Positions 8,456 to 46,850 of a DNA stretch of 64,000 nucleotides are shown here, in pieces (the first letter of the stretch is position 1; every line of letters begins with the position of its first letter). The stretch spans positions 7,412,687 to 7,476,686 of the forward strand of contig JBOZIK010000001.1 of assembly GCA_051453625.1 (NCBI GenBank). The letters run 5' to 3'. Below the pieces are notes generated by a model, which saw only the letters and a program-made list of their open reading frames with translations, was not told the origin of the DNA and did not search any database. The position numbers and the translations under genes were made by a program. This DNA is from Welwitschia mirabilis. Lineage: Eukaryota.

Positions 8456-9776
8456 TATTCGTTATTTTACAATGATCTAAATTTAAGCTATATTTTCACT
8501 TAGCTATCATTTTTCCTTAAGGATAACATTGGGTATAGGTTCAGAATTATACTAACTTTAACTTTTAAAGCAAGATACAAAAAGAAAGAAATAAAAAGAA
8601 GAGATAAGGTGATGTTTAGAGTTGAAATTTGTCTTAAAAGCGAATTCATCCTTAATTACTCCTTCAATCCAATGATATTTAATTGCCTTTCCTGCAAAAC
8701 ACTTCAAACCATTAAGTGCATTTGGCTTAAGTCATAGGGCATAACCTCATCCTCCATATGATAAATGGTAAATTCACTTAACACTTTAGCCTTATATTAA
8801 TAATAGAAAGTAAGGACTCTAAGGCACTTAAGATCTATGAAATTAAAAGACTTAAACTAAGTGATGAAAGAAATTCACTCATCTAAATTAAACTTCATAA
8901 TTAAAGTAATAGCCTAAGCATTCCAATTATGACATTACTCATGAATTGAAACCAAGGAAAGAAACATCTGTATTATAAAACAAAAATAACTTTATAATAA
9001 AGAAAGAAGGAAGAAGAAATAAGAAGAACTCATCAAGAAATTCTAAATACTACCTCACTTCTCCAAAGAGTCACTTAGAAAGCCATCACAAGTGGATGCT
9101 CCAAAGTGCTATAATTCCACATGCCAAATATGATATAATGAAGGGTTCGAGGCCCTTTTAAAGAAAGAGATGAGAATGAGGGGTGGTTACAAGCTTTTAG
9201 CTTATAGAATTAGATGGATTATTACATGGTTATAACAATTAAAGGAGGGTGGTTTGTCTTCTTATCTATTTGATAAAGATGCTTATGATGATATTAGCAC
9301 TTGGCTTTAGAGTGCAGTAACTTCTACCAAATGATGTCATATTTATGTGTCTCCATCATCATCCTACTTAGTAATGCCATGTAATTATATGAATCCTTGT
9401 CATCACCACCACATGTCTATAAGAATGCAATTAATTCCGTATGTGAATTTGATTAAACTTGCAACTACATTATATCTAATTTTTCATAACATGTTAAGAA
9501 TGTGAGTTTGGAGGAAGTTTGAGCACATGGACTGGTAATGATAGTAGTCTTAGATGGCAGCATTGACATTCTAAGTAGATTGATGATGAAATTAAGGTAT
9601 ATCCTCTAATTAATCATAATACACTTGAAAATGTTATGGAAAATAGTTAATTTCATAATTAATGTGAAAACCAATAGAAGACATGTTTCTATGATAAAAT
9701 TGATTATATTAATATCTTCTATTAAGGTTAATTACTCATTTAACTTAATCATAATGTTAATTTTTACATGTTAACA
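8456..9776 (-). repeat. 5' LTR of the Athila-like element (~1.3 kb)
   Basis: Homologous to 945-2734 and followed on the minus strand by the PBS. Confidence 0.85.
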
Positions 9777-14078: not shown

Positions 14079-15549
14079 AGTATTTTCATTATTATTATCT
14101 TGCTTACTTAAAAAAATCTCTTTTAACAATTTTACATTTTTTCCTACTCTATTATTATCAAAATTAAAATTTTTTTAGAAAAATACTATTTTGTAGGAAC
14201 AAGGAGCATCTAGAACAAGGAGTACTTGAATCTACAAAGTGCTTATCTGAGCTCTTCTACATTGGATTTTACTTCTACCTGGGTGTACTCTTTCTCATTT
14301 TTGTTTTTACTAGCACCAAAGAGTATAGGATTTAAAGTCTCTATTTTCATATCACATGCCTTTCCACATCATTTTTTCATTATTAATAGTTAATCTGTGA
14401 TTTTATTATATCATAATTGATTTTTTCATAAATTATTTTATTAAGAACCCTATTCAAGATAATCTAATTTTGTAATTTCTTCCTTTTATATTCTCTATTA
14501 TATTTTATTCCAAAATTGACTGGCATCATTATCTATTCTTATGAAATCACTATCCTTTTTCTGTATTTTCTATCATTCAAAATAAAATTATTTCTTTTAT
14601 TATTTTATCCATCTTAAATTAGAAATTTATTGTAAAAAATACTTATCACTCCACTTAACCTCTCATGCATTATTGGATTTTAACCTCTACTAATAAAGTT
14701 TACAAAGAATTTGATGAAGAATAACATTACTTTAAACTCCTTTTAAATGATTTTAATAAGTATTATACTAAGTCCTCTTTTGAAACTAATAAAACTTTAA
14801 CATCTCAATCCCAAAATCCGAAGTTCTTAGGATATCATTTAGTATATGTAAACATGTTTGAAGAGGATTAAAAAATAGTATCTATTCAATTTCTTATAAT
14901 AAAACATTGAAAGATCTATGATCATCAAAAAGATTTTCTATTTTTTAGATGGTTTTTCATATCCACACAAATTATTTTAAAATAAAATCATTGATAACTA
15001 ATATTTTTCTTAAAATATTATTATTGTAGTTAAGAAGANNNNNNNNNNNNNNNNNNNNNNNNNNNNNNNNNNNNNNNNNNNNNNNNNNNNNNNNNNNNNN
15101 NNNNNNNNNNNNNNNNNNNNNNNNNNNNNNNNNNNNNNNNNNNNNNNNNNNNNNNNNNNNNNNNNNNNNNNNNNNNNNNNNNNNNNNNNNNNNNNNNNNN
15201 NNNNNNNNNNNNNNNNNNNNNNNNNNNNNNNNNNNNNNNNNNNNNNNNNNNNNNNNNNNNNNNNNNNNNNNNNNNNNNNNNNNNNNNNNNNNNNNNNNNN
15301 NNNNNNNNNNNNNNNNNNTTAACATCTTAATCCCAAAATCTGAAGTGCTTAGGATATCATTTAGTAGATGTAAACATGTTTGAAGAGGATAAAAAATAGT
15401 ATCTATTTAATTTTTTTATAATAAAACATTAAAAGCTCCATGATCATCAAAAAGCTTTTCTATTTTTTAGATGGTTTTACATATCCACAAAAATTATTTT
15501 AAAATAAAATCATCGATTACTAATATTTTTCTTAAAATTTTATGATTGT

Positions 15550-16262
15550 AGTTTAGAAGATTCATATGAACATGTCCTTGAGTCTAAAGTTCTCATGTCA
15601 ACTATTTCATAAGGATGTGACCAAAATGATATGATTAAGTTAAAAATATTTTAATTTTCTTTGAAAGAGAAGGTAAAAACCTATTTACATTCCTTAAACT
15701 ATTTATTAATTTAGATTAAAAAAGATCTCGATCATGATTTTTTAAAGAAATATTCTCTAGCATACAAAACCCATGAATTAAGACATAATATTTTTGATTT
15801 CACACGACATGATAATAAGATTTTCTATTAATAGTTTAACTATTTTAGTGATTTATTGATGAAATTCCTTAGCATGATTTTGAATCATGGTAAATTATAA
15901 GCATTTTCTATGAATTTTTAGCAACATAAAATAGAAAAATAATTGAGATGATGAGTGTAGGAACTTTTATATTTAAAGAAATCGAGGCAGCTTAAGGTAC
16001 ATTAGAATGCATAGTAGAGAGTATAGTGAGTTGAAAAAGGTTATGTAAAGTGAAAGACATATCTAAGAAAAGCTAACCATCTAATTCTAGTATAGATAGA
16101 GATATTTTTCAACTTGATAATAAGTTTAATATGAGTAGAAAACTTAATACCATAGTCAAATGTTTGGAACAACTTAAAACATCTAAACAACTTGAAGCTA
16201 GTTGAGCTTTCATTTGTGCCATATGTACCTCTGATGAATATGAAACTATTGAATGTCCTTCT
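15550..16262 (+). pseudogene. gag: Athila-like gag remnant with zinc knuckle
   Basis: EDSYEHVLE; KLKIF*FSLKEKVKTYLHSL (cf. RLKLFPFSLKDKAKxWL); DFLKKYSLAYKTHELR; P*HDFESW*IISIFYE; ICAICTSDEYETIECPS. Confidence 0.75.
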
Positions 16263-18449
16263 TCTCCTATATATTAAAATATAAGGGATGAATAGGAAAA
16301 TAGTTTACTAGCTAGAAGACTCTTTTTTTCGATGATAATCTTTTTTCAGAGAAATACATACAATCTTAAATTGAAAAATCACCCTCGATTTTCTTAGAAA
16401 ACTTTAAAAAATAATGCATCTACTTTATAAAGGTCTAGTAAATCATACTATAAGCCATTGAAGAATGTTTTAAAGTAATTTATTATAATCAAAACTATAA
16501 CCAATGATACATAAGTTGAGATTAGTAAATAAATGGAAAAATGTGTTTAATGTTTAAAAAAAGAAATGAAGAAATTCACTCAAACAACCTCACACATGTT
16601 TTCCTCATTAAAACAAGGAAATAAAGATAAGGTTTTAGTTCAACCTATACATTGCATTAACTTTCTAGCAATAAAAAAAAATTTTTAATTTATTTATTTT
16701 ATATTTATAAATACTCTATAAAAATTCCAATATGAATAGAATTCTCTAAGGGTAGTAATGTATGATTCAAAAAAAAAATAAATTTCTAGATAATGTGAAG
16801 GAGGTTAGTTTAAGTAAAACTATAATTACATAAGAAAGAAAACTATTTTCATTTTCAAAATTAAAGTTAATAAATCAAAGAATTTAGACTTTAACAAATT
16901 TAAACATATTCCTTAAATAAAATACTTATGAAAATTATTTATTGTTGAGAACTTGATTGACTATGAATAAATTTCTAAGTGATGAAATGAATTTACTATA
17001 AAAATGTAATAAATACTTAAGAGGTAAGTTTAGATTGAAAAAGCTAGTAAATCTTCTTTACACATAGAAATGAATTAGGTTTAAAAATACTAATATCAAT
17101 TTATTTATTACTTTTTCTTATTATTCTTTTAGATCTAACCTCTATATAACGTTTTTCTTTTCATTTTCATAAGGAAAATGAAGCCATATCTTGGAAGGTT
17201 AGCATAGAAGAATAAAGTGAATNNNNNNNNNNNNNNNNNNNNNNNNNNNNNNNNNNNNNNNNNNNNNNNNNNNNNNNNNNNNNNNNNNNNNNNNNNNNNN
17301 NNNNNNNNNNNNNNNNNNNNNNTTGTTGAGAACTTGATTGACTATGAATAAATTTCTAAGTGATGAAATGAATTTACTATAAAAATGTGATAAGCACATA
17401 AGAGATAAGTTTAGATTGAAAAAGCTAGTAAATCTTCTTTACACATAGAAATGAATTAGGTTTAATAATACTAATATTAATTTCTTTATTGCTTTTTCTT
17501 ATTATTCTTTTAGATCTACCTTTTATATAACATTTTCCTTTTCATTTTGAAGCCATATCTTGGAAGGTTAGGGTNNNNNNNNNNNNNNNNNNNNNNNNNN
17601 NNNNNNNNNNNNNNNNNNNNNNNNNNNNNNNNNNNNNNNNNNNNNNNNNNNNNNNNNNNNNNNNNNNNNNNNNNTATAAGAATACTGTGGAACATTGAGA
17701 TAAAGTTCTAAAAGTTAAAAATAAATAAAATGAAAGGTTATAAAGAAAAATGAAGGAGAATCAAGATGGAAATGAGAATTAGGAATATGATTTAAAATTA
17801 TTTCAAAGAGTGTATTAAGAAGGATTCTATTCTAAAACTAATCTAACAATGTATTAGAGGGTGTCTAATATAGTTTAGAAAATCTTGATAAGGGGTCTAA
17901 ACATAATGAAACCTCCATAAAATATGATGGTCTTAAAAATGAAAATATAAAAATAAATCTATGGTTACATATATAAATACAAATTTATTTTCACTACAAA
18001 TTTACCCTCATCTTGATATGAAATGGGAACATTTTATATTAAAAGTAATAGTTAAGTAAAGGATAAAGCTAGAACTTTCTCTTCTTCAATAGGAGGAACT
18101 TATCTAGAGGTAATTTAATCATTGAAAAGATTGAAGATCAAAATCCTAGATAATATTTTTAAAAATAAAATGGATGGATTTTTTCATGGTCCCATAGATT
18201 TTAATTTTTGTGTAAAATCAATGTTCTAAGGCATTAGCTATTTGAATTCTTCTATTTATTAAATCTTAAATTTTTTTAATGAGCCCGTGTATCACACATC
18301 TATTCAAACATGCTAAACATTTTTTTTATAAGAAAAAAATCCATAGAAAAGATGAAATCCATTCATAATAGATAAATGATAAATATTAAAGGAAGCTGTA
18401 TATTAGAATAATAAATCAAATATGAAAGAAGAAAAAGATTAGCAATAAA

Positions 18450-21400
18450 AGTATTTTGAATATAAGGAATCTATAGGTTCTTTTTCTTTAATGTCAAATA
18501 TTTTAATTTGTAAGTACTTCGGTTATATTTTTAAAAAATTATAAATGGATCTAACTACTTTAGGAAAATTTTCAAACTTTATTCTATCGAATTAGCCTTA
18601 AAAACAAGGTCAATAATATTTTATACTTTTGGTTTAAAATGTATATTGTAAGATTTACCATCATGTTTTTGGTATATTTGACTTATTTCCAAATCTTTAA
18701 GTTCTTTTTATCTCATATCACTAGTTATGTGAGTTATGATCATTTTGATGATCAATAAAATTTAAATCTTCTATTAGAGTTTTGAAATTTAAACTTAAGT
18801 AAGAAGAATAGATTTTGTACCTTAAGTTAATTGAAATGTTGAACTACATGTTACTACTTTTTTAAAAATAAAAACACAACAAGCTCATAAAACATAACTA
18901 ATTTTTTTGGATCAAGAATTAGGATTAGTTGATAGTACTTCTTTTAGATGATTGTAATAGTTTCATTTATGGATCTCACTCATTTGTTTATCTATTGATA
19001 CCTCAGGGTTAAAAAGGAGTATTTTGTTCCAAATGTTTTAAGAAATAATTCAATTTTAATGGATTTAACTTAAGAACCATTTTCTATAGTTAATACATAT
19101 GTAATTATAAATATTTTAATTATGTAATTAAGCATAAACTTTTGTGTTTTCTTAGTTGATGTTTTTCATAATGGAATGACTCCCATCCATATAGAGAAAT
19201 ACTCTAAAATAAATTCATGTTATTTGGAAGATGGAGGATTAATGAGTTTATTCAATTTCTATTTTTTGAAAACCCATATTGGAATAAATGACAATAACTC
19301 ATTAAAAGACTTGTGAATTCTTGATTAAAACATATGGCAAGTATTGCATTTCCTAAGAAGGTTATGATATTCTTGGCTTGTGATTTATCGAAAATATCTT
19401 CAACATAATAAATTAATAATTATAGATTTTCTATTTGGTGGGTTCCATAAAAACCAAAGTGTTTACTTTTAATACATAAGTAGCTTCTTTAAATTTTAAA
19501 GAGTAAAGAGAAATTTGTCAAAATATTTTTCAAATAGTTGATTTTAGATCAAAGAAAGCCTATAGCTCATCTCTAAAATTACATTATTACACAAGTAATA
19601 AATCATCTAGAATTTTTTATGCTGCAAGTACTTAATCATGAAGGTATGCCACCAATCAAGTTGGTAAGGATATTTTATTATTTTTGATATATCATGTGTT
19701 TGCAATTTTTTTGTCTATGAAACTATTGATTTGAGAATGTCATAAATAAATGCATGTAAAACTATCTCTGTGATTATCAAGTTTAGTGTGTTTTTTTGGT
19801 ATAGAATTATTTAATAATCATTTAATCGAATAAGCATATATTTTATCTTTGCCATTTAGTTCTATAAAATTTCAAATTTATGATCATATTTACTAATAGG
19901 ATTCTTTATTATAAGTTGTGAAAATCCAAAAACTTTAAATTTGAGAGATTTAAACTAATAGTGACTTTGATTTCTCTAGATAAAACTTCATAGTTAACAA
20001 TATTATTGATACAAGTAAATCTTAATTTGAAACTCATAAGAACATGTGTGACAATTTAGAAAGAATAGTTTTCATATAGATCCTCCATTTTAGATGTTCT
20101 ATCAAAATACATGTAATTATCCTACGACTTTTTGACTCATATAACATGAATATCATCATCAAAAAATTAGTTTTTTTTCCATCTTCATCTTGATTGTTTC
20201 CTTCAATCAGTATAGTGACATTCTCTATGATATACTTACTTTTTATTGTCTTTTAATAATTGAACATAAGATCAATCTTAGTGAGAATTAAAGATCATCT
20301 TGTAAGTCTTGCATTGTTAATGGAATATTTTAATAGATGTTTTAAGATATTTTACTTTTTAATGAAAATTATCTTACTTGCAATCATGTAATGTCAAAAC
20401 TCTTATGATGCAAAGACTAAGTTGAGAAATGACTTTTCTGAATATGTGTAATTTTTCTCATACTAGTGGAAATTCTAACTTATGTAATAAATTGGATGAT
20501 CTCTATTCTACTTATTTCTTTGAAAGATAATAAAACTTATAAAACTTAGACCATGAGCTAAATATAGGTCGAAAGATTACGCAGGTTATGATGAACTTAG
20601 AATAGGATGAGAAGTAAGATATTTTTTAATATTTTCAAGTACTTTCTAATAGTCTTCATCCCAAACAAATTTTATGTTTTTTTTTAAGTAGATCCATAAA
20701 GGGTTCACAATTATTAGTCATAGTTGAAATAAATCTCTTCCTAAATTTAATGCTTCCTTATAATCCACAATTCCTTAATACTTTTAGGTGGACAAACTTT
20801 TGTGATATTTTCCTTTATTAAAATCNNNNNNNNNNNNNNNNNNNNNNNNNNNNNNNNNNNNNNNNNNNNNNNNNNNNNNNNNNNNNNNNNNNNNNNNNNN
20901 NNNNNNNNNNNNNNNNNNNNNNNNNCTTTTGTGATATTTTCCTTTCTTAAAATCTATCTCTATATCATGTTTTAAGACTATGAATGAAAGTACCTTTTTT
21001 AAAGGAAATCCAAATATAAACCAGTTTGGGTTGAGTCTAAAATTAAATCTCCTCTCTCTTTGAAATAATTAATTTAAATTGTCTAAATATTTTTGAACTT
21101 TAAATGATTATTTGATTATCATCAATTTTATTCTTAACATTATTATGAATAAGATTGTGGAAGATGTATTTTATGACCTTTTAATAAGTTGCATCAACAT
21201 TCTTTGATCAAAGGACATCATAGTATAATAAAAATACATCCTAAGTAGTAATAAAAGTAGTTTTATGTTCACCTTCTAGTTTGGTAGATATTTGGTTATA
21301 AATAGAATGACCATCCATAAAAGAAAGAAGCTCGTAACAATAGTGTTATCAATTAAAATTTGAAACTAGGTAATCATTTCTGAAAGTTACCTTGTTTAAA

Positions 21401-21660
21401 TTATTTAATTCAATGCCAATTCTAATGTCTTAAGTATTTTTTATTACAACAAAGATGTTAAATATGTAGTTGAAGTAGTCTATAGCATAAATCAAACTAA
21501 TTGTCAGTAATCTTTCAATATCCTCTTTTACAACAAGTGCTACTTTCAAGTTTAATCTGTTAACTTTTTGTTTGATGGGAACATTGAGTTTAAGCATAAT
21601 GTTATGCATAATAATAAATTTTCGATCTTGAGTATATTCTTCTAATGCCAAGAAAATATA
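18450..21660 (-). mobile_element. pol: Tat/Ogre-type Ty3/gypsy pol pseudogene: RT - RNase H - additional (archaeal-type) RNase H - integrase
   Basis: ORF 21430-21651 resembles the RT N-terminus. Other motifs: ELLSFMDGHSIYNQI...KTTFITT (~21330); ARLTR*SLILTKIDL (RNase H, ~20310); MYFDRTSKME and FTCINNIVNYE (aRH, ~20110-19990); INPPSSK*HEFILEYFSIWMGVIP and IENGS* (integrase, ~19250-19070). Confidence 0.85.
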
Positions 21661-22031
21661 TGTTTGTTTTGGAATAACATTGTTTCTAGTTATAATTTCA
21701 CTTGCAAAGTGGTTTAATCATTGATGCTTAGGTTATGTTTGAGGTTTGCAGGGTTCACTTAATAGTTGTACATTGGTATTTCTTACCTTTCACAAAAGGT
21801 TATTATTTTTTTTTCAATGACTAAATGGTTTCATATGCTTCTTAGTCATGTTGGGTGGAAATTATAAAGAGAACACATTATGAATACAAGAATCCTAAAT
21901 CACTGTAATTAGAAATCAAATTGAAATTAACATAGCTCTCAATGATTTGTTTAATGTACATAGCCCTCAAGGGTTTACCTTGCAATTTATTAATCATGTT
22001 TTATGTTTTGTAATCAAAATTACCCTTAAAC

Positions 22032-22483
22032 TAAAGGATTTAGTTAAGCCATACAACCACAAGGATGTATTAAATACAAAGTATAATAGCATAAACATAA
22101 ATAATAAAAAAGTATAATAAAAGTCTTAATAGTAGAATAACTAGTATAGGAGAATTCTTTGCAAGAATTAATAATGCCTTCTTAAGGTCTTACTAAGGGT
22201 TACCCCAACATACAAGGGATGCCTTTCTAGGTCTTACTCCAACCACTTTATCTTGTTTTTTTTCTTTTTTTTCTTTTTTTTTTTTTTGAGATCTAACAAT
22301 CATCCAAAATGATTAAATAAATTCTTCTTGTAAGTCTTTAAATGAATGTGACTTTTGGTAAGGCACATGATGTTTAGGATAGTTGCATTTTTTTAAAAGA
22401 AACCACTTTAATTAAATATTACATATAATATATATTGTATGTAATAATCATATGAAATGTGATTATAAAGTCACTCAAATACA
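22032..22483 (-). repeat. 3' LTR of the Copia-like element
   Basis: taaaggatttagttaagcc...catatgaaatgtgattataaagtcactcaa aligns with taaagaatttagataggcc...catatgaaatgtggttataaagtaactcaa at 24561-25040. Right boundary approximate. Confidence 0.7.
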
Positions 22484-22689
22484 TTTTTCAGCTGAAAGAC
22501 ATTTTGCTAAAATTAAACTCATAACCACAAAATTATAAAAGCATTAATCATTTATTAAAGGCTTTTCCCCCCAAAAATCAAACTCACAATGTCAAAGATA
22601 GTCACTAGAACAATGTTCACTATAAAATTATCTTTAAAAATAAACTGCATTACTTTTATTGTCATTTTTTAATTCATTCTGAATAATCC

Positions 22690-23470
22690 CGTACATACAC
22701 CTTCATGCAATCCTTCCTGGAGAAGTAGATAGCCTCACTCACGCCAAATGTCTTTATATTTCTTCAGTCCCCATCTCCATCTCTCGCACCATCGCCATCG
22801 CCACCACCACCGACGTTCGGCAAAAGCTTCTCAGCAATATCCGACGGCACCCTGGATACAGCGACACACTGTGTTGAGGCTATTTCCTTGCCGTTCTTGC
22901 TTTCATTTTCGCTGAAGAGCTTTGACGATCATCTTTCATCTTCTGCGCTCTCAAGCCCACACAATTCACGAGACGCTCAGGCCTGGTTCTCCCGATTGCA
23001 GCGAAGAACGAGCCGTTGCACCGCCGTCGACCACTCTTACATTCACTCACTGTGTCCACCGCATCACGCACGGAGACCAATCCGCATGAAAGAGGCAATC
23101 CCATTCGATTGTGTAGAGCTTGAAGCAACAGCACAGGCCCTCTCTATCACATAAGGACACCCTTGTGCGTACCGCTGCTAGTCCAACTCTCAAAGGCCGA
23201 CGGCCACTTCTCTGGAGCCTTCCATCTCTCCTTCATCGCGCTGAAAATCTCCAAAGAGCGAAAATTCGGATTGTCGCATCTGTTTCGAACAATTATCTTC
23301 TGGGGATGTTCATCGGCGACTGTAAGAAATATCATCAGATTGAGGTGTGCAGTGGCGCCGGTAGAGTATTTTGCCAAGCTCATCACCATGTAAATGACAC
23401 AAGACGCTCCACCAAGGCCAGACGCAGTCTGCAACGCCTGTCTCTTGGTCGCTTCTCATGGACAAAGAAT
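22690..23470. other. GC-rich, CpG-retaining island of unknown function (candidate unmethylated regulatory element, exon or captured fragment)
   Basis: About 47 CpG dinucleotides counted by hand in ~780 bp, against only a few per kb elsewhere; sharp compositional edges. Confidence 0.85.
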
Positions 23471-23935
23471 TTCATTAGATCCTTTTTTACCCTTATATTT
23501 TATTTTAATATTAAACTTTTTCTTTTTGACCTTCACTAATATAATAATCACATGACCATTTCTTTTCATATGAGCTAATCCATACATCTTCTGAGGGACA
23601 TATCTCTTCAAATGGATTATTGTTTGTTCACAACTCTTCGTTTGGATACTAAGTATGTGCAACTTCAAGAAGGTCATCATCAAATATAGGCATGGGCCTT
23701 TTTTTTTTAATCATTTATTTCAACACTTCTCTTCTAGGTTCTCCTTCAACCATGTTTTCATCATCAACTTCAAAGACTTTATCACAATAAAAAACTCATG
23801 ATCATTTCCATCAATTTTCTCATCACAACCTTTGACCTCTCATAAATCCACTCTTGGGTATCAAGGACATCTTTAAAATATGTCATTCTTCAAGCTGTAG
23901 GGTAGCAACTCCCACTTAAGAGTCATCATCTGTCC

Positions 23936-24490
23936 TTAATGAGAAAACATCAACCCCTCTTGATTATGGTTATGTTCATCTTCATACTTATTATCATTAA
24001 CATGAACTTCTTCATTAGTCCTTCTTTCAGGAATACTAGGGTCACTTACATCATTATTTCTATGAGGAGTAGCTTGAAACCATGCCTTTTCAAAGGGATC
24101 ATTGCTCTTTAGCATGCCTAATGAGGATCTAATAAAAATCCTCTCAAAATCATTATATTTTCTTGTATTACTATTATCTTCATTAATATTTACATCATCT
24201 TTACATTCATAAACTCCATCCAAAATCTTCCAAATTCTATAAGTAGAGAAATATTTCATTTCTTTATAGAACTCACCATTCATGTTCATACACTTTGCTA
24301 TGATTTATTTTGTCAAATTTTGCTCCATTAATAACATTTTTCTAAAGCTTACTTCATCATCATCTCAAGGTATTTTAAGTTTATGAATTTGGATACACAA
24401 CCACAAACCTTTACTTTTGAAGTAAAACTCCACTCTATAGTTTTACACATCATAATATTTTCCATCAAACTTGGATAGAAATAACTCCAT
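23936..24490 (-). pseudogene. gag: Copia-type gag N-terminal remnant
   Basis: MELFLSKFDGKYYDV*NYRVEFYFKSKGLWLCIQ (cf. PxFDGxNYxxWxxRMxxYLxxxGLW); EFYKEMKYFSTYRIWKILDGVYE (UBN2-like). Confidence 0.7.
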
Positions 24491-24560
24491 CTCATCTTAT
24501 TCCCACCAACTTGCAAGTTGTTGTTTTTTATTTTATCATACTATAGGCTTTAATACCAAT

Positions 24561-25046
24561 TAAAGAATTTAGATAGGCCTAAACAACCATAAGGATCTTT
24601 TGAATACTAGGTCTAAGAGAAAAAATATAAATAATAATAAATTATAATAATACTCTTACTAATAAAATAATAATATTAAATAATCATATTTATATGTAAT
24701 AACTTTAAGACATTTCTTCACTAGAACTAATGATGCTTTCGCAAGATCTTATGCAACACACAAAGGAATACCTTTTGATAAGCTCTTACTCTAAGAAACA
24801 AGAGACGATTTTCTAAACCTTACTCCAATCATTTCATCTTGCTTTCCTCACGTCTCACAATTATCCAAAATGATTGATTGATTTCCTCTTTTAAAGCCTA
24901 TGATTTTTCATAAGGGATATGATTTTTAGGTTAATTGGGTTTTTTTTCCTTTTTTGCGTAGTAATGATTTTAATTAAATAATACATGTAATATATACTAT
25001 ATAAAATAATCATATGAAATGTGGTTATAAAGTAACTCAATTAATA
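24561..25046 (-). repeat. 5' LTR of the Copia-like element
   Basis: Partner of 22032-22483; PBS lies immediately downstream on the minus strand. Confidence 0.7.
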
Positions 25047-28000
25047 TTTTAACATATGAAACATGACAACAAGATGAGGTAAATGTTTCAATGTATCATA
25101 AGATAAATAGTGTCAGAAAACTTAAGAAAACTCTTAAGCAAAACTAATTATATGAAAATAAAAAATAGAAAGGAAAATGCAATTATGTCAAAGAAAGCAA
25201 GAGAGACCTCAATGAAAAAAAACTGATTATTTGCAAGGGGCATCATTTCCTAATGTATTAATCAATGATACTCAAGCACTTGATTAAGATAAAGAAAGTT
25301 GAATCATGAACACCAATGGTGAAGATGGCATTGATCTAAACATTTTAAAATAAAGAAAAGATCCTCCATAGAGAGTAAGGAGGTAAGATTTGTTCTTTTN
25401 NNNNNNNNNNNNNNNNNNNNNNNNNNNNNNNNNNNNNNNNNNNNNNNNNNNNNNNNNNNNNNNNNNNNNNNNNNNNNNNNNNNNNNNNNNNNNNNNNNNT
25501 ATGAAATGTGGTTATAAAGTAACTCAATTAATATTTTGACATATGAAAAATGACAAGAAGATGAGGTAAATGTTTCAAGGTATCATAAGATAAATAGTGT
25601 AGGAGAACTTAAGAAAACTCTTAAGCAAAACTAGTTATATGAAAATAAAAAATAGAAAGGAAAATGCAATTATGTCAAAGAAAGCAAAAGAGAGACCTCA
25701 ATGAAAAAAAACTGATGATTTGCAAGGGGCATCATTTCCTAGTGTACTAAGTAATGATGCTCAAGCACTTGATTAAGGTAAAGAAAGTTGAATCATGAAC
25801 ACTAAAGGTGAAGATGGCATTGATCTAAACATTTTAAAATAAAGCGAAGATCCTCCATAGAGAGTAAGGAGGTAAGATTTGTTCTTTTACTTATTTATAG
25901 CCTCTCATTTTTTAATCATATTATAGTTAAAATTTCTAATTTTATTATATCACAACTAGGGTTTTCATCTATAGCAAGTTAAAAAAGCGATATGTAGTTA
26001 TTTTTCAAATCCCAAATATCATTACACCTTATGTTATTTTACTATCATAAATATGTCATTTCAATGTGTCATATGTGGTGAAGTGTCATTTTCATTTCAA
26101 ACATTTTAATGCTGAAATTTGTTAATAAAGTCTTAAATTTTAAATCTTTCACAAGAAATGATACTCATGTTTTAATTCTTTCTTTTCCAAAAGGACACTT
26201 GTTTCTAGGGTTAAAACGTTTTCTAGTTTTCTTATTTTCAAAAGTACAGATGTTACTATAAAAGAAGACATCCCCATTTGTAATGGTCATAATAAAGAGT
26301 TGAAATTATAAATGAAGTTTTAGTTTTCATGTAAAATGGCGTAAATAAGAAAATCATGAATTGCAATAAAAGGTTAAGAAAGGAGATTAAAAATATTATT
26401 ACAAAGGTAAGAAAGAAAGTATAGGAATCAAAATCAAAGAGAAAAAAGATAACAGGGGGCTCTTCTAAAGATAAAACTATTGGGATTCATATTAAAAGGC
26501 GCCCGTGTAAAGCAAAAATGGAAAATCAAAAAGAGAGGCTTAAAAATACTATACAATTAAAACAAGTTCACTTGATTAATCTATCAAGCATCAAATAAAT
26601 ACTAAATTACATGACATGAATAGAAGATACAATTACGTCCAAGATCAATTGCCATAAAGGTGTAATCTTGGACACCCCAAAGGGAGGGTTACAAGATCAA
26701 GCCCTTGCATTGATAGGGGTGTCTAATTTTCATGGGCACAAGTGCTACTGAGAATTTGTGTGACACACACTAATCTACCTAGATTACCCTCTAAAATAAT
26801 GGAAGATACAATTAACTCTATGAAAAGAGGATCATTTTCCAATAAACAGGAAGAAACTCCTAATACTCAAAATAAAATAAACTAAATTAGTATTTGAACA
26901 TTTTCATTATACTACTTATTTAAAACAAATAAGATGTATAATTAAAATATTTTTTAAAACCCCTATTAATGTCAAGGCTAGAGCTTGTAGCCATTTTGAC
27001 ATGCACTTAAAGCACTACTTTGATGAAGCATCAAGCTAGGATAGCATTAATCTAGTAGAGCATAAGACTAAATGAGTAGCCTAAAGCTAAAACATTGTAC
27101 AAAGTAGATTGAAAACTAAGTTGCCAAGAAACTAAGTTGAAAGAAGGATTGAATTTGTACTAAGAAACAACACATAAGATCCCATCTAGTTTAATTAAAT
27201 AATCTTGCATTTTGTCTTTCTTATACTGGGTTTGATTGATTTTTTCCACAAACTAAGTTCATTTTATTTTCCCATCAAGTATACATTAACAATGGAAGTG
27301 ATAGTTTATTGCTTTATATCCTTTCCTTTTATAGTAGTAACATATTTTAGCCTCTTTTCTCATAAAGAAATACCATTTTCTTTGTTTTTAAAAAATAATG
27401 CATTTAAACTTTCTTCATAATACAATTTTTATATGCATTAATTAGAGTGGAGAATTATTGCTTTGTTTAAAAAAAGAGAGTGATGTTTTCTTAAAAGTAA
27501 ACAAAATGTGATCAAACTTCAAGGAACAACTAGTTAGAAAAATAGCCTTAGTATATTAATCATAAATTTTGGTCTTTATAGTGGTAAATTAAATCATAAA
27601 ATGTTCATCCATTCAAGTACTTCATGTTTGAGATCAACTTTGGCTTTTTCTTCATTTATTTCAAACAATTTGATAAAAGAGTTCTAAATTTCCTTAGATG
27701 ATTTAGTTAGATCAATGTGATGTGGACATGTACTTTTTAACCTAAGCCTGAAGATTAAAGTGGTATATTAACTTAGTTGATCCCTTTTTATTATTTTTCT
27801 TACATCACTTGGCATTTTAGAATTTTCTTTAATGATTTGTATAACATTTATTAGAATCGACTACATCTATACTTATCATGTATCTAAATATCGAACATTA
27901 AACTTTTTATATCATTTCCCATTTATCCTTTCAATTTAGCCCTATTTATAAATGATAATTTACATTAGTAAATAAGATTAAAGGTTTAATATAACTTGTC

Positions 28001-33300: not shown

Positions 33301-36284
33301 TGTCATGTCTAGATTTTTAAAGGTCTAAAGATTTAGTTTAAATAATTAAATAAAAACTAAATAAAAATATTTTTATATTGTAGGACATACTAAGCTGATC
33401 TAATTTCTAGATTCTTTACTTATTAGCATATTATTATTATTTAAGATACAATTATTTACTTTATTAATAAAACTTCTTGTGTTACAAGTATTAGTTTAAA
33501 TAACTTTTTCTTGTAATTTCTATAATTAATAATATCATTTTGTAGTCTTTTATTATTTATTTAATGATATAATTTTTATGGCTAAATTAGTGGTTATACA
33601 AATATTATTTTATTTATTTTTCTAATTATTGCATTTTCTTTTATTACTGATTCATATGTACTCATTATGGAAAAATATTTATATGGGAAAATGTTATCCT
33701 AATGTACTATTGAAATTACTTGCTAAATGTCTTATCTTTATTTATTAAATCAAATTAATTGTTATTTAGTCTCTTTTTCTTAATACTTATAAGTAGTGAC
33801 ATGTTTTTAATTTTTTTTGCATTTTTCTTTAGATGACTTATTTAAGTAAATACTAATGATTCATTATCATTTTTAAAAATAGTAAGATGCCATGTGACTA
33901 AGCTTATCTTCTTTATACTTATTTTGAAAAATGCTAAGACCTCTTGGATTATGTAACTTATGTATTAATGATGAAGGCATCTTTTTAATAATTATTAATT
34001 ACTCATTACTGGAAAAATATTTTTGGCATGTTAAGCATTTACTATTATCATGGTGAAATATTAAATGTATGTAGTAGTCAGACAAAGTAATGATTAGGGA
34101 ATCACAACTATTTTTCCCAAAGATAATAGTGGCTTATGTATCCCTTTGTATAATCTATTATATTTTGTCTTCTCATTATAAATAGGATTCTATTTCTTTT
34201 AGTCTTGTTATTTGGAATGTCTTCTACACTTGAATGTTGATCATCTTGTACCTTGAAGCTTTTAAAATTTTGGAATCTTGTCAATTGTGAAGTTTTTAGA
34301 GCTTTGGAATAGCAACTTTAAAGCTTGGAAAACTTCATGTTAAATCATGGGTAGGGTCCCAGAGAATATATCTTATACCATTAAGAAATTTCTTGTATTT
34401 TTTATATAGTTTTAGTATTGTATTACAAATGAGGTATGATTAGATTGTATTCTTACATCTTTTATATGTTTTAGGATTTTCCTTACAAACTTGTATAATC
34501 ATGNNNNTTCTTACATACTTTACATGACTCTATTAAATTCTTTCTCTCTTCTTCTATAATCTAGTCTTTCTTTTAAATGAGTTTTATATTTGTCCTTCAT
34601 TTACATAACCGATAGTGCTTGTTAATTTTATTGCTCACTTTTGGATTTCGTTTCATGACTGTCTAGTATAATCTTAAGTATTTCTTGAATCTCCTATATC
34701 ATCCTAAATATTTCTTGAATACCTTGTATGGTCCTAAGGTTTTTCATCCTTTTGTGATCTNNNNNNNNNNNNNNNNNNNNNNNNNNNNNNNNNNNNNNNN
34801 NNNNNNNNNNNNNNNNNNNNNNNNNNNNNNNNNNNNNNNNNNNNNNNNNNNNNNNNNNNNNNNNNNNNNNNNNNNNNNNNNNNNNNNNNNNNNNNNNNNN
34901 NNNNNNNNNNNNNNNNNAGTGAAAAAATATTACATTGTTAGATTGCTTTGTAAAATATTTTGATACTTGAAAAGATAATCCATGAAAATAAATCTTATTC
35001 TTTCTTGTGACATCTTTATAACTTCAAATATTCTTATGGAAATGAGAGTTCCACAGATTATCAAATAAGATAGTTGAATATGGAAACCCATAAATTATTG
35101 AATGATGAACTAGGTTTCACAAATACATAAATCATGAAATGAGACAGTGGAAAACTAAAAACAAAACCACAAATCACTAGACAAGGAAGTGATAATATAA
35201 AAATAACACCCTAGATTGCTAAGTAAGGCAGTGATATTCATGATCCAAAGATCATCAAATGAGGCAGTGGACCAATAAAATTAAAAGGTAGTGGTAAATT
35301 ATATATAAAACTGGTTAATATCATTCCATTTCCATGAAATCTAATTCTTGATAATTTTGAAATCTTTCTTCTTATCTCATCTTAATATATCTTATAACTT
35401 GAGGTTCTTACTGCCTTAATCTTTACCTTAATTAGACCATACTGGGAATTGTAATGATTCATTATTCTCACTTCATACTCTTTTATGTTAAACAAGTGAT
35501 AAATTGCTGCATAGTAAAAGTTGAGATCTTGTCGATGAGGGCATATGAAAATGAAATATTTATTATCTAGATTATACTTGAAAAATATTAATTATAGTCA
35601 TTTTTTCACTATTATAACTTATGATATTTTTATGTCATATGGTTAAATTTTTATTTCCAAAAATTAACAATTATTTATCTATAATAGACTTGTAAGCATA
35701 GTATCTTTAATATGTTAAATTTTTTTATTTCTTAAACTTGTAGTTTTGATTTTGATTTTAAAATACTCATAGTTGTAGCTTTACTTGAAGCTTTATTTTA
35801 ATAAGACTTAGCTAGCATGTATTGTCTTTCTATTTTAAATATACCTTTCTTATAGGAATTGATCTTTTAATGTCTTTAATTTTAATTTAGTAATAATATC
35901 TATAATTCAATCCTTCATTTAAAGATTTTATTTTTTCCTCTTATTTTCTTAAAGATCACATATTTTTGAATACTTTCATGGCTAATCTTTTAATCCCTTA
36001 AGCTAGTTCTTTACTTCTACTCTAATCATGGCTAGTCTATTAAATTTTAAGATTATTACCTTGGATCTATTTTTCATTCAAAAAATTAATGTCACTTTGT
36101 ATTCTTAACTAATATTTTATTTCCTCAGATATATGCTTAATTTTTGCTGTAATATTTTAGTTTGATGATTAGAACCCCTTTTCATTATAAATTGGCATAA
36201 GTGATTTAATATCATTTTGGCTTATATTTACACCTTAATAAATATAACAATTGAAGTTTTTAGGTGAAATTTATGGGCTATAAA
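33301..36284 (+). repeat. 5' LTR of the Tekay element
   Basis: Homologous to 40776-44947; followed by tgggtactaaagcc (cf. TGGTATCAGAGCC). Confidence 0.85.
35051..35295 (+). repeat. Degenerate ~36-42 bp tandem subrepeat array inside the 5' LTR
   Basis: About six or seven copies of ccacagatcaYYaaatgaggcagtgg separated by short A-rich linkers. Confidence 0.75.
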
Positions 36285-39200
36285 TTTGGGTACTAAAGCC
36301 TAGGTTGTGATGTGGTTGGGCATAATTATTGTTAAGTTGTTAAAGGTTTTAACATGAGAGCCTAAGCTATGGTATCAGTTGAATAAGATAATAAAAAGTT
36401 ATAAACATTTGAGTTACAAGCAAACCATTTCTACCATCAATATTTTTGGATGCTCTTTGTGTGTGTTTTTTAGTTTTCTAGTATTGGGAAAATGATTTCA
36501 TATGCACGATTCCATATAGATTTCTAACTTTCCATCTTAAATCTAGTTTTATAAGGTGTTATTTATTGGCTTTTTAAGTGTAAGGTACCTACTAAAAAAT
36601 AAAAGGGTTTAAGTTTCACATAGTTATAACATATCATGTTACATTTCTTCTACTTACTTCTAACATACTATTCAAGAGGAGATGATATAAGTTCTAAGGT
36701 TAAGAAAAATACTATGAATAAAAATAAAATTGACAAGAAAAGATGACAAAAGTACTAAATCCACATTAAAAATAAAAACATTTAAAAAGATGGAGAGAAG
36801 GAAAGCTTGCAGAGAAAGACTATCTGATTTCTCATATTCACTTTTAAAATAATTATAAGATACTCAATCATAAAAACCAATCATAATGACAAACATCAAA
36901 TATAATTATGCTATCTAATTAAAATCCCAAATATAATTACATGAAATGTCCACCATGTATTCTCCAATCACCAAAACCCTCCCCTTATCCTCTAGAATCC
37001 AACAATAAAATAACGTCATGTACTACACACCACATGATGTTAGCATTACCAGAAATCTTAGAATGTAATTCCTCCCTTCAAATCCTTCTCTGCACAATCT
37101 AAACCTCTATAAAATCCATTCGTCATTTTTTAAGAACTAAAAAGTCCTNNNNNNNNNNNNNNNNNNNNNNNNNNNNNNNNNNNNNNNNNNNNNNNNNNNN
37201 NNNNNNNNNNNNNNNNNNNNNNNNNNNNNNNNNNNNNNNNNNNNNNNNCAAGAACAGATGACAAAAGTACTAAATCCACATTAAAAATAAAAATATTTAA
37301 AAAGATGGGGAGGAGCAAAGCTTGCAGAGAAAGACTATCTGATTTCTCATATTCACTTTTTAAATAATTATAAGATACTCAATCATAAGAACCAATAATA
37401 ATGATAAACATCAAATATAATTATGCTATCTAATTAAAATCCCAAATATAATTACATACAATATCCACCATGTATTTCTCCAACCACCAAAATCCTCCCC
37501 TTCTCCTCTAGAATCCAACAACAAAATAACCTCATGTACTACACACCACATGATGTTAGCATTACCAAAAATCTTAGAATGCAATTCCTCCCTCCAAATC
37601 CTTGTTTACACAATCTAAACCTCTATAAAATCCATTCCTCATTTTGTAATAACTAAAAAATCCCCATCTTAGTTATGTTAGCCATCATTGTCTCTACAAT
37701 GTTATCCACTAATGCATAAGTGGACTCTAAATAAGGATGTACTAGTAATGTGAAAATGATATACCCTGTATCATAACTATGCAGAATGTACCATCCTTCA
37801 ATAACACAAACACTCTAACATCAACTACCATCTTCCCATCATTGCTCTCATCAAAAATTTTTTAGCCTCTCTGCTTTTGATATTTTAAAGGACAAGGTTA
37901 GATTACATAGAGTTAAAGGAAGTTTTTAAGCTTACAAAATCTAAAACACTATGAAGGAGACCTAAAAAAATAATAATTAAAAAATTTCCTTACCTATTAC
38001 AGAGACGTTTCAAAGGTGATGTAGGTTTCTTGGGGTAGTAGTCACATTTATTCATCTTGCCTTAAAGGAAAATTAAACAAGCAAAGACAATATTGAGCTT
38101 TAAGATCTGAGATGATAACTTGTTTTATAATTTTAACACAAAAACCAAAGCTTTAATGCTTTCTTCCTTGTCTTATGAGACACTCTCTACATCTAGCTTA
38201 AATCCCATTTCTAATTTACAATTTAAAAAATCCTAATTCATAGTTCATAAGATGATTTGTTTTGTTTTCTCCATATGTATTTTTTATGGATTCTCTCTTC
38301 CTTATGTAAATAACATAATTCAATTTGTGTTGATGAAGGGATCCTCTTCTTTACTTTGCTTTACTTTTATTTTACTCCATTCCATTCCATTGATGGATTT
38401 TTGATCTTGCAATCATTAATGCTACACCCACATCCCCCTTAACCTGTTAAAACTTGTAAGTAATAGAAACATAGTTTTTGATTTACCTCTTTGTTTAAAA
38501 TAGAGCTTCAAAGAATCCTTTAAAATCAAAATGTAATTAAGCTAATAAATTAATATAATTAAGGTGTTTTACAACTTCTAGCTTTTCCCCTTTCAAGGAT
38601 AAAGGAATGCTGTAAACCATATGTATAAAATGAAGATGCATTTATATTAAATTTGTTGGTTACTTTTACTGCATCTAAACTCCTTGCTTCCTAATGTTTG
38701 AAGTGGGTAGTTATTACAACAAATTTCTTAATGAAAGCATTTTCATCATATGAATTCTCTTCATGTTTTTAGTAGTATCATAGTATTCACAAGCTTCATT
38801 ATATATTCTATCTTTTCTTGAAAAGGTTTATTAATATCACCTTTTTTTTCGTTTGTGATTTTTGGATTTTCTTGAAAAAAAGGAGTGTTTTTTTCCCTTT
38901 TCAGTTTTTATTTGAGTAGAGAAAGTAACTAATCTTTTCATAATTTAATCTTTCCATGCTTGCGAATATTCTGGAGATTTAGAGGCAGCAACATAGATTA
39001 CGTAGTTGATGAGAGTGTAAGAGTTATAAAATTCATTAAACTTTTAATCGTAACTCTAAACAANNNNNNNNNNNNNNNNNNNNNNNNNNNNNNNNNNNNN
39101 NNNNNNNNNNNNNNNNNNNNNNNNNNNNNNNNNNNNNNNNNNNNNNNNNNNNNNNNNNNNNNNNNNNNNNNNNNNNNNNNNNNNNNNNNNNNNNNNNNNN

Positions 39201-40775: not shown

Positions 40776-43700
40776 TGTCACATCTAGATTTTTAAAGGTC
40801 CAAAAATTTATCCCAAGTAGTTTAATAAAAACTAAATAAAATAATTTTTATGTTGTGGGACTCACTAAGCTAACATAATTACTAGATTCTTTATTTACTA
40901 GCATATTTTATTATTTGAGATGTAATTATTTACATTATTAGTATAAACTTATTGTGTTGTAATTATTAATTTAAATAACTTCCTTTCTTATAATTGCTAT
41001 AAGTAATAATAATATTTTATAGTACTTCCTTGTTTATTTAATGATATACTTTTAGTGGCTAAAATAATGGTTAGATGAATATTATTTTCTTTCTTTTTGT
41101 AATCATTGCATTTTCTTTTATTGCTAGTTAATATGTGCTCACTATAGCAAAATATTCACATGTGGAAAATCTTATCCTGTTCTGTTGAAATTACTTGCTA
41201 AATGTTGCATCTTAATTGGATAAAGCAAAGTAACTATTATTTAGGTTTTTTTCATCCTTAATAATTGTAAGTAATGGCATGATTTCAAAATTTTGGTAGT
41301 TTTCTTTAAATGAATTATTTGAGTAAATACCAATTATTTTTTATCTTTTCTAAAAATAGTGACATGTCATGTGACTAAGCTTATCTTCTTTGTACTTATT
41401 TTCAAAAATGCCAAGAACTTTTGGATTATGTAACTTATGTATTAACGATGAAGGCATCCTTTTCATAACTATTAATTACTTATTATTGGAAAAATAATTT
41501 CAGCATGTTGAGCATTTACTATTATCATGAGGAAATATTAAATGTACCCAGTGGCTAGGAAATGTAATGATTAGGGGTTAGGAAATCATATCTATGTTTT
41601 CTAAAGATAATGGTGGCTTATGTATCCCTTGATATCGTCCATTCTATTTTATCTTTTCATTATAAATAGGACTTCCTTTCCTTTGATATTATTATTTGAA
41701 ATATATTTTTGACTTGGATTTTAGTAGACTTTATAGCTTCAAAAATTTTAGATTCTTTAGAATCTTAGAGTCTTTAAATCTTGGTATAGAGATATTAAAG
41801 TTTTGGAAACTTCATGTTAAATAACAAGTATGGTCCTAGGGAATTTATGTAAATCTTATACAGTTTAGAAATTTCTTATATCTTTCATGATTTTATTATT
41901 ATCTTGCAATTAAGGTATGGTTGTATTATTTTCTTGCATGTTTTATATGTTCTAGGTTTTTTCTTACATACTTATATAATCTTGTATTTTATTGCATACA
42001 TTGAATCGCTTGATTAAACTCTTTCTTTCTTCTTCTATAATCTAGTAATTCTTTTGAATAATCTCTATGTTTAGCCTTCATTTACATAGTCTATATTTCT
42101 TAGTCTATATTTCTTGTTAATCTTATTACTCACTTCTATGGTTTGGGTTTCTTTTATTAACCATCTAGTATGATCTTAAGTATTTCTTGAACCGCTTGAA
42201 TGGTCCTAAATATTCTTGAATGTCTTATAGTCCTAAATATTTTTTGAATTTTTTGTATGGTCCTAAGTTCTTACATCCTTTTATGGTTCAAAGAAATAGC
42301 ATTATGATGTTTTAAAATTCTTGTNNNNNNNNNNNNNNNNNNNNNNNNNNNNNNNNNNNNNNNNNNNNNNNNNNNNNNNNNNNNNNNNNNNNNNNNNNNN
42401 NNNNNNNNNNNNNNNNNNNNNNNNATATTTCTCGAATGTCTTATAGTCCTAAATATTGAATTTTTTGTATGATCTTAAGCTCTTAAACCCTTTATAGGTC
42501 AATGAAATAACCTTATGATTTTTTAAAATTCTTGTAACTTTCTTTAAAAAAACTTATTTTTCTTTAATTGGTTAGAAATTCTTCCATGAATATCTATTTT
42601 AGATTCAAAAATTATTCTAGTCTAATCTTAATTCTTATGATGTGAAAAAATGTTACATCATTAGATTATTTTATGAAGTATCTCGATCTTAAAAAGATAC
42701 TATATAAATATAAATCTTTTTTTTTTAATTTGTAATGTATTTAAAACTCCAAATCTTCTTATGTAAATAAGGTTTTCAAGATCATTAAATGAGGCAGTGT
42801 AATATGAAAACCCATAGTTCATTGAATGAAGTAGTGGGTTGATAATTCCATAGATCACTAAATAAGGTAGTGGAAAAATAAAAATAAAACTATAGAATAC
42901 CAAATGAAGGATTGGTAATATAAAAATAAAATCACAGATCATGAAATGAGTAGTGGGAATGATGATCTACATATCACTAAATGAGGTAGTGGATAAATAA
43001 AGTTAAAACCACAGATCATCAATTAGGTTGTGCTAAATTACATGATGAAACAAATTAATCTTATTCCACTTTTATAAAATATAATGCTTGATATTTTTGA
43101 TTATTTATTCTTGTTTCATCTTAATGTATCTCATATCTTAGGGCTATTGTTGCCTTAGTATTCACCTTATCGAGTCATAGTAGGGACTATGATGATTTAA
43201 GGTTCTTTGTTCATACTATTTTATGTTAAATAAGTGATAAATTAGAACATAATAAAGCCTAATATGTTAAGGAAGGAATATGAAAATGAAATATNNNNNN
43301 NNNNNNNNNNNNNNNNNNNNNNNNNNNNNNNNNNNNNNNNNNNNNNNNNNNNNNNNNNNNNNNNNNNNNNNNNNNNNNNNNNNNNNNNNNNNNNAAGTTC
43401 TTACATCCTTTTATGGTTCAAAGAAATAGCCTTATGATTTTTTAAAATTCTTGTAACTTTCTTTAAAAAAACTTGTTTTTTTAATTGGTTAGAAATTATT
43501 TTGTAAATATTTGTTTTAGATTTAAAAATTATTCTAGTCTAATCTTAATTCTTATGATGTGGAAAAATGTTACATCATTAGATTATTTTATGAAGTATCT
43601 TGATCTTAAAAAGATACTCTATAAATATAGATCTTTTTTTTTAAAAACTTTGTAACGTATTTAAAACTCCAAATCTTCTTATGTAAATAAGGTTTTATAG

Positions 43701-46199: not shown

Positions 46200-46850
46200 A
46201 GACCTCCAGTTCATCCCTCAGCAATTTTTTGAAATAGAGGTTAAAATCACAATAGATGAATAGAATCAAGATGTTAATTGATGGGCTAATTATTTAGTTG
46301 TCTTTGTCTATGATTTAAAACCACATCTGCTCAAAATTCAAAGGTTTATATGCATTAAATGGAGAAATAAGGAGGTGGCCACTACTTCTACTCTGGATCA
46401 TGGAGTGTTCCTCTTTAAATTAAACTCTAGAAATAAGATGTTAAACATCATGGACCAAGGCCCTTGGCCTTTTGATAATAGGCCAATGATAATAAGTATT
46501 TAAAGCCTTGATATGATCATAGAAGCTAATCATGTTACAAAGTTTCTCATATGGATTATACTACCTAATCTTAAGCTATATCTTTAGTTTAATTCAGTCC
46601 TTAGCCACATTGCTAGTGTGGTTGGAAAACCTATTTATACAAATGGATTTATGACCTCCATGGATAGATCATACTACACATAAATTTGTGTTGAGATCTC
46701 CCTTGAATTTTCTCTTCTAGAGAAGGTTAGAATTAAAAGTCCTAATGGTGTTTTCTTTGATTAGATCTTACAATATGTGTGAACTTTAGTTAAGTGTAGT
46801 CATTGTATTTTCTTTGATTATTCTCTCGACCAATGTTGTAAGAAACCAAA
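46200..46850 (+). pseudogene. L1 ORF1 remnant (DUF4283-like plus zinc knuckle)
   Basis: DHGVFLFKLNSRNKMLNIMDQGPWPFDNRPMII; IASVVGKPIYT; KCSHCIFFDYSLDQC; multiple stops. Confidence 0.8.

Follow-up and report, generated by a model that had tools for sequence, protein, structure and literature searches.

Does a short stretch of undecayed DNA inside an old and heavily decayed retrotransposon mark a site that has been kept free of methylation, or only DNA that arrived too recently to have decayed? The question is raised by a single segment of the 64-kb stretch of DNA that was analysed here (the window), which is rich in CpG in surroundings that have almost none.

A CpG-rich island in decayed plant DNA

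The 781 bp from 22690 to 23470 have a GC content of 0.510 and contain 47 CpGs, corresponding to an observed/expected ratio (o/e) of 0.97. In the rest of the window (59,106 non-N bases), the GC content is 0.262, and the 107 CpGs correspond to an o/e of only 0.11. At this background density of about 1.8 CpG per kb, a segment of 781 bp should contain about 1.4 CpGs, and the 47 that were observed far exceed chance. When CpGs were counted in bins of 500 bp, the two island bins held 18 and 29, and every other bin held 4 or fewer. Windows of 150 bp with a GC content above 0.43 were found in the island only, across all 64 kb.

The borders of the island were located by a two-state GC likelihood change-point search over 21500-24700, which put the left edge at 22688 and the right edge at 23463 (GC content 0.514 within, 0.277 beyond). 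The right border is particularly abrupt, with GC falling from 0.54 to 0.24 across about 20 bp, or one 50-bp step. The claim of the original prediction that a real and sharply bounded island, the sole one in the window, lies in DNA that is otherwise nearly free of CpG is fully borne out by these numbers.

22688..23463, no strand assigned: CpG-rich and GC-rich island, defined by composition and edges; non-coding in all tests run, single-copy in the related species

The island is also spared in the CHG context. The o/e values for CAG/CTG are 0.94/1.25 in the island versus 0.36/0.39 outside, and those for CCG/CGG are 0.80/0.72 versus 0.08/0.05. For CWG, the o/e is about 1 in the island and about 0.37 outside.

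By sequence criteria, the segment (781 bp, GC 0.510, o/e 0.97) is a CpG island. The thresholds of Gardiner-Garden and Frommer from 1987 are reportedly a length of at least 200 bp, a GC content of at least 0.50 and a CpG o/e of at least 0.6. The stricter cut-off of Takai and Jones is said to be a GC content of at least 0.55, of which the island, at 0.510, falls short. A blastn search of the window with the island matched the island alone, and searches for copies collapsed by C>T and G>A changes in the window returned only low-complexity noise, which was thrown out.

The depletion outside the island could in principle have more than one cause. Fungal RIP was ruled out by the dinucleotide indices, with a (CpA+TpG)/(ApC+GpT) ratio of 1.26 outside the island. 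The joint depletion of CG and CHG identifies the background, as judged from its composition, as the product of methylation-driven decay in a plant. Only two protein domains were found by Pfam among the ORFs of at least 70 aa across the window, DUF4283 (E = 1.3e-7) at 46282-46500 on the plus strand and zf-RVT (E = 4.7e-7) at 51799-52146, also on the plus strand. We take both to be families of plant LINE-like retroelements, and because they match there, the window is plant DNA. The decayed LINE-like remnants sit in a slightly GC-richer block at 46-52 kb, and besides them no gene-like features were found in the window.

The retrotransposon around the island

No assembly gap interrupts the stretch from 20926 to 25399, which contains the island and plant repeat DNA on either side of it. 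BLAST identified direct repeats flanking it, pairing 22029-22140 with 24558-24670 at 79% identity and 22292-22481 with 24853-25043 at 72.5%. In a MAFFT alignment of the repeats, 379 of the 538 aligned columns were identical, 83 were transitions and 76 transversions, and there were 136 gap columns. Together with the sequence between them, the repeats were read as a minus-strand LTR retrotransposon, whose parts are listed below in their order on that strand.

24559..25110, minus strand: right direct repeat, taken as the 5' LTR (repeat pair with 70-78% identity; outer end at about 25110 placed by eye)
24547..24558, minus strand: primer-binding-site (PBS) look-alike TGGTATTAAAGC, directly adjoining the inner end of the 5' LTR
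23464..24546, minus strand: AT-rich internal region in the expected place of gag, with 0 Pfam families
22565..22575, minus strand: polypurine-tract (PPT) look-alike GGGGGGAAAAG; weak, as about 19 nt separate it from the downstream start of the 3' LTR
22029..22545, minus strand: left direct repeat, taken as the 3' LTR (repeat pair; minus-strand start TG at 22545)

The structure thus shows what is expected of an LTR retrotransposon, namely two direct LTRs, a PBS and a PPT, the last of these being weak. The PBS look-alike is a 12-mer that would pair fully with the 3' end of initiator tRNA-Met but for two changes of the deamination type. The motif used in the search is what we take to be the sequence of a tRNA-iMet PBS. 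It is not enriched in the window (3 matches, 1.89 expected), and the look-alike derives its weight only from where it lies and from the kind of mismatches it has. A possible target-site duplication (TSD), GTTT(A/T), which agrees at 4 of 5 positions, was read by eye at LTR outer ends that are themselves uncertain.

From its 5' end, the element consists of the 5' LTR, the PBS, 1.08 kb of AT-rich DNA, the island, 144 bp with a purine run, and the 3' LTR. The internal region (22546-24546) measures only 2.0 kb, and pol therefore cannot fit. We accept the structure as a minus-strand LTR retrotransposon that lacks pol, with the island in the place expected of pol. The old age of the element follows from its LTRs, which disagree in 30% of the aligned positions, the 76 transversions among them. 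Heavy LTR divergence and an old insertion had been predicted.

The description of the element as Copia-like and of its internal region as a gag remnant did not find confirmation. No gag, Copia or other Pfam domain was detected in 70 ORFs of at least 35 aa from 19-28 kb. The three candidate gag ORFs matched 0 Pfam families at E values up to 10, and none was matched either when each of the six frames of 21001-25399 was translated through its stops. Membership in Copia (Ty1) is not borne out, as a gag/pol with the order PR-INT-RT-RH is missing and the internal region is only 2.0 kb long. The label Copia-like would be based only on the type of PBS.

Parts of the element are repetitive. In DNA runs of both organisms for which reads were available (organism A and the related species organism B, see below), 22204-22545 and 24138-24250 are multi-copy, with a depth of 9-40. 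Contigs of other copies break off at 22204, 22511 and 22540-22545 (runs X1 and X10). Judging by the multi-copy depth and these loose ends, other members of the LTR family, or of a shorter repeat within it, are still recognizable elsewhere in the genome with at least 90% identity, although the two LTRs here share just 70-78%.

Other long direct repeat pairs in the window, with 71-85% identity and 7-8 kb apart, are 945-2734 with 8456-9776, 33301-34737 with 40776-42236, and 34919-36275 with 42642-44938. They are probably other old LTR retrotransposons or segmental repeats.

Coding potential and independent reads

Genes are said to be the classic home of plant CpG islands, and the island might belong to a protein-coding unit, either as an orphan small gene in a minus-strand frame of 80-102 aa or as a GC-rich first or last exon, with the other exons lying across huge AT-rich introns. 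The frame of the 102-aa ORF does show a weak excess of GC3 over GC1,2 over 23108-23407. However, open frames in the island are of ordinary length. In comparison with 500 dinucleotide-type shuffles, the longest stop-to-stop frames were unexceptional on both the plus strand (141 aa, p = 0.22) and the minus strand (102 aa, p = 0.13). The lowest stop counts per frame, 4 on the plus strand (p = 0.41) and 7 on the minus strand (p = 0.15), were unremarkable as well.

23147..23455, minus strand: longest minus-strand stop-to-stop frame, 102 aa (p = 0.13); status as a gene unsupported

Homology searches gave the same picture. Among eight ORFs from the island, none matched a Pfam family above threshold; a match to Kazal_3 (E = 4.4e-4) was rejected as chance, with 20.3 bits at a cut-off of 26.2. 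For the 102-aa frame, no protein of 56-179 aa was found with three five-residue words in common. An exhaustive phmmer (HMMER) search of 1.84 billion protein representatives returned no real relative, only two spurious matches (E = 3.9e-5 and 1.3e-4). These were dismissed as internally repetitive junk proteins that had been aligned via 5-6 repeats. The ESM Atlas did not contain a real relative of this frame either (best score 0.82), and its recognition value of 2071 was below 2300, the level attained by 91% of known families. Weak look-alikes among P-loop GTPases in the Atlas, with scores up to 0.82, were taken as noise. Word searches with the 87-aa minus-strand and 141-aa plus-strand ORFs yielded nothing at E<=0.01, and no further exon-like GC peak is present in the 64 kb. 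The island is devoid of any real coding sign, as neither the length of its open frames nor homology speaks for a gene or exon, and we regard a protein-coding unit as improbable.

Signs of a structured RNA were also missing. A search of 21500-24500 against Rfam at E<=1 gave one chance-level match, which lies beyond the island, and none within it. No tRNA was found in the island, and its predicted folds showed no excess of structure (z-scores of -0.58 and -0.12).

Of the words sampled from 22500-23700, shares of 0.43-0.62 were present in nine DNA runs of organism A (three studies), and shares of 0.32-0.37 in three runs of organism B. The flanks make up 35% of this stretch and could by themselves account for a share of at most 0.35. 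The higher values in organism A therefore require that words of the island itself are present in the independent data for this organism.

In organism B, contigs from run X10 (57% of which was read) cover parts of the island. One contig matches 23018-23358 over 341 bp with 2 differences (depth 3.0), and another matches 22734-22813 over 80 bp with 4 differences (depth 2.2). An 86-bp contig fits 22864-22922 only partially, over 59 bp, with 5 differences (depth 6.3), and probably represents a paralogous short segment. In the same organism, single-copy flanks have a depth of 5.5-6.2 and LTR parts a depth of 9-40. With island contigs at a depth of 2-6, like the single-copy flanks, the island is not a high-copy repeat, an outcome that would have spoken against its significance. 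The island is real, present in low copy number and older than the split between organisms A and B. The contigs of run X1 (55% of the run) left 22710-23438 without depth, a hole that proves nothing but was counted against a protected island.

These data also bear on the possibility that the island is an assembly chimera or a contaminant, with microbial, vector or organelle DNA misjoined into a draft plant scaffold. The draft has 27 runs of N, many of them 100-N gaps beside duplicates of 90-94% identity, and among the listed contigs, which come from partly read runs, none was shown to bridge either junction of the island. Nevertheless, the island lies in gap-free sequence with plant repeats on both sides, and its words or contigs recur at nuclear-like depth in DNA runs from two organisms and 4 studies. 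It would also be unlikely for a contaminant to be joined on both sides within 781 bp. A blastn search (word size 11) of plasmids, E. coli genomes and phages with the island produced no match, which argues against the contaminant that had been named as a refuting outcome. A 24-mer from the island had no exact match in collections of prokaryote genomes or metagenomes, and no organelle gene domain was found by Pfam in the island ORFs. We consider a chimera or contaminant very improbable.

RNA data contribute little. No RNA runs were listed as carrying words of the stretch. From run X18 (2026, about one quarter of the raw reads), 0 reads were placed on the stretch, which is no test of expression. 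Run X15 (2026, also about one quarter) provided 4 reads, all of them partial fits and mostly in repeats, with about one on 22791-22952. As the segment is also matched by additional contigs of lower similarity in organism B, this read is probably derived from a paralogue, which would point to expression of a related short sequence at another genomic site. The T-rich piece of about 60 bp at 22864-22922 has a bin depth of 7.5 in organism B, with 0.6-3 alongside.

Protected patch or recent insert

The original prediction had offered two options, a segment that stayed unmethylated over the long term or a younger or captured fragment, and both of them stand as the two best readings of the island. 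Its further idea of a centromere or recombination site is supported by nothing in the analysis. We tentatively favour the first option, at a little under even chances. The island would then be foreign, non-transposon DNA that has been kept free of germ-line methylation, and thus a plant CpG island or unmethylated region (UMR), possibly a promoter or a non-coding transcript.

For such a protected patch, we envisage that non-transposon DNA came to fill the missing pol region of the old, decayed, pol-less element. One possible route is a switch of template by the reverse transcriptase, of the kind known from maize Bs1 and the wheat Veju TRIM; the other is insertion as filler DNA in repair when pol was deleted. 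An unmethylated state in the germ line would have let it escape deamination in both the CG and the CHG context, and bound factors or transcription would be the likely cause of this state. The island might serve as a promoter, as a first non-coding exon or as a distal regulatory element, maybe active in some tissues only.

Several observations were counted in favour of protection. Decay would be expected of a methylated insert with the age of the LTRs, and the CpG o/e of 0.97 therefore favours protection. In addition, the hallmarks of an insertion are missing at the island, as there are no terminal inverted repeats (TIR), and the flank-to-flank alignment for a TSD has a score of 18, which is reached by 19% of random pairs. 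The origin of the island before the split between A and B, its words in independent runs, and the frequency of gene-distant UMRs in large plant genomes were counted on the same side. Counted against it were the sharp right edge and the GC content of 0.51, which fit a junction of unrelated DNAs and are silent on function. Sharp edge and foreign composition indicate only that the island differs in origin from the element, not that it is active. Look-alikes of a TATA box and a pyrimidine patch were picked out by eye at both edges (plus strand, 22753-22785; minus strand, 23497-23459). Motifs of this kind are expected in AT-rich DNA and were not counted as evidence.

The main competitor of the protected patch is a recent insert that has not yet decayed. 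Filler or foreign DNA could have been pasted by double-strand-break repair into the element after its deletion, shortly before the split between organisms A and B, and would be methylated and without function. Candidate sources are non-coding mitochondrial DNA, a fragment of a gene UTR or promoter, and horizontally acquired DNA. The sharp edges and the composition unlike the rest of the window agree with this possibility, and so does the position exactly where pol was lost. The lack of a TSD or TIR fits an end-joining insertion, and the lack of any homologue is as expected of lineage-specific non-coding organellar or intergenic DNA.

The comparison of the two organisms bears on the same choice. 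Divergence between A and B amounts to 6 of 421 positions in the island versus 11 of 493 in contigs of the single-copy flanks. Conservation of the island is no better than that of its flanks, as a recent insert would predict, and there is no sign of extra constraint. In the two well-fitting contigs of organism B, however, 25 of the 26 CpGs are intact, which a methylated insert does not readily explain. Changes between A and B affect 1 of 52 CpG positions and 5 of 369 other positions. Methylated CpG is taken to be tenfold hypermutable; at this assumed rate, about 7 changes would be expected, with a probability of about 0.007 for at most 1. At a fivefold rate, the probability is about 0.14 and the deficit is not significant. 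This test covers 26 CpGs only, in contigs of low depth (2-3x). CpG retention would mildly favour an unmethylated over a methylated but young island.

Timing and source are further difficulties for a recent insert. It must predate the split between A and B and yet have kept a CpG o/e of 0.97, which would leave a narrow time window at usual rates of decay. The depth of 2-6 in organism B (57% of the run) speaks against mitochondrial DNA, which today is present in high copy number. Typical GC contents are about 0.44-0.46 for plant mitochondrial DNA and about 0.37 for plastid DNA, and the 0.51 of the island is above both. On balance, we consider a recent insert rather unlikely, though it is the most serious of the alternatives to a protected patch.

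A more far-reaching version of the protected patch is also conceivable. The cargo may have escaped CG and CHG methylation over millions of years because it was exapted, either to serve as a promoter or enhancer in particular tissues or as a newborn non-coding or small-ORF gene private to a small group of species. We regard this version as unlikely. If true, it would make the island a plant counterpart of the mammalian orphan CpG islands, born from transposon cargo. Such orphan islands in mammals reportedly often mark unannotated, tissue-specific promoters, as described by Illingworth and colleagues in 2010. The likeness, a CpG island away from annotated promoters, is an analogy only, and the differences are another kingdom and another methylation machinery, with CHG spared here as well.

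Closer counterparts exist in plants. Unmethylated CpG islands in plants were reportedly described by Antequera and Bird in 1988. Plant CpG islands being known already, the island adds a single locus to an established kind and does not point to a new mechanism. Like other plant CpG islands and UMRs, it is a short, sharp stretch in which CpG and CHG are undepleted, in methylated surroundings that are depleted. UMRs differ in being defined by measured methylation, whereas the island is known from sequence alone. It also differs from them in its location, since retrotransposons such as the one around it are as a rule densely methylated, and in having no linked gene. According to a preprint, 33,375 of the approximately 100,000 UMRs in maize are more than 2 kb from genes, with many inaccessible in leaf, and many distal UMRs that are closed in leaf are active in other tissues (Crisp et al., 2020, preprint). 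The island, far from any recognisable gene, resembles this distal third of the maize UMRs reported there.

The second kind of precedent is the capture of host sequence by LTR retrotransposons, for which maize Bs1 and the wheat Veju TRIM are examples given in a review (PMC13317346). The order of parts is alike, with a 5' LTR, a PBS, a short remnant, a foreign non-transposon segment, a PPT and a 3' LTR, and with no pol. The captured DNA in Veju is likewise of unknown origin (PMC13317346). The inserts of Bs1 differ in that they are described there as recognisable fragments of host genes, whereas the island is without a recognisable parent. Retrotransposon capture as such also fits less well, since captured DNA of the same age as the LTRs would be expected to have decayed if nothing protected it.

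Organellar DNA and filler DNA are known to be inserted into nuclear genomes at repaired breaks. Insertions of this kind resemble the island in their sharp edges, in the lack of a TSD or TIR and in a foreign composition with a CpG o/e of about 1. The lack of protein homology would also be shared if the source were a non-coding mitochondrial region. The island departs from organellar insertions in its single-copy depth in organism B and in its GC content of 0.51, above the typical values for plant organelles.

In very large or AT-decayed plant genomes, islands of undecayed CpG and CHG are candidates for functional space that can be read from the sequence. Such space may comprise unannotated genes, promoters and distal regulators, and UMRs defined by bisulfite data serve likewise (Crisp et al., 2020, preprint). 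However clear the signal, sequence by itself cannot tell a long-protected from a recently arrived segment. An unmethylated and transcribed island would be a case of transposon cargo that became a regulatory or non-coding unit specific to its lineage; a methylated one would merely be a young insert. Moderate interest would attach to the locus only if the segment inside the transposon were shown to have been protected for long and exapted as a regulatory or non-coding unit.

A minor observation concerns the assembly. Most of the N gaps, which mostly consist of exactly 100 N, are bounded by the same sequence on both sides, with 90-94% identity. For example, 25013-25399 matches 25500-25888 at 94.6%. 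The duplicates were seen in the following regions.

1486-1909: N-gap duplicate region
14797-15560: N-gap duplicate region
16942-17571: N-gap duplicate region
25013-25888: N-gap duplicate region
36734-37663: N-gap duplicate region
42477-44214: N-gap duplicate region
48018-49638: N-gap duplicate region
50073-51572: N-gap duplicate region
52104-54279: N-gap duplicate region
55903-58065: N-gap duplicate region

They look like overlapping contig ends that were left unmerged, either due to haplotype differences or due to gap filling with uncorrected long reads. Unmerged ends of this kind inflate the local length and give rise to false tandem duplications.
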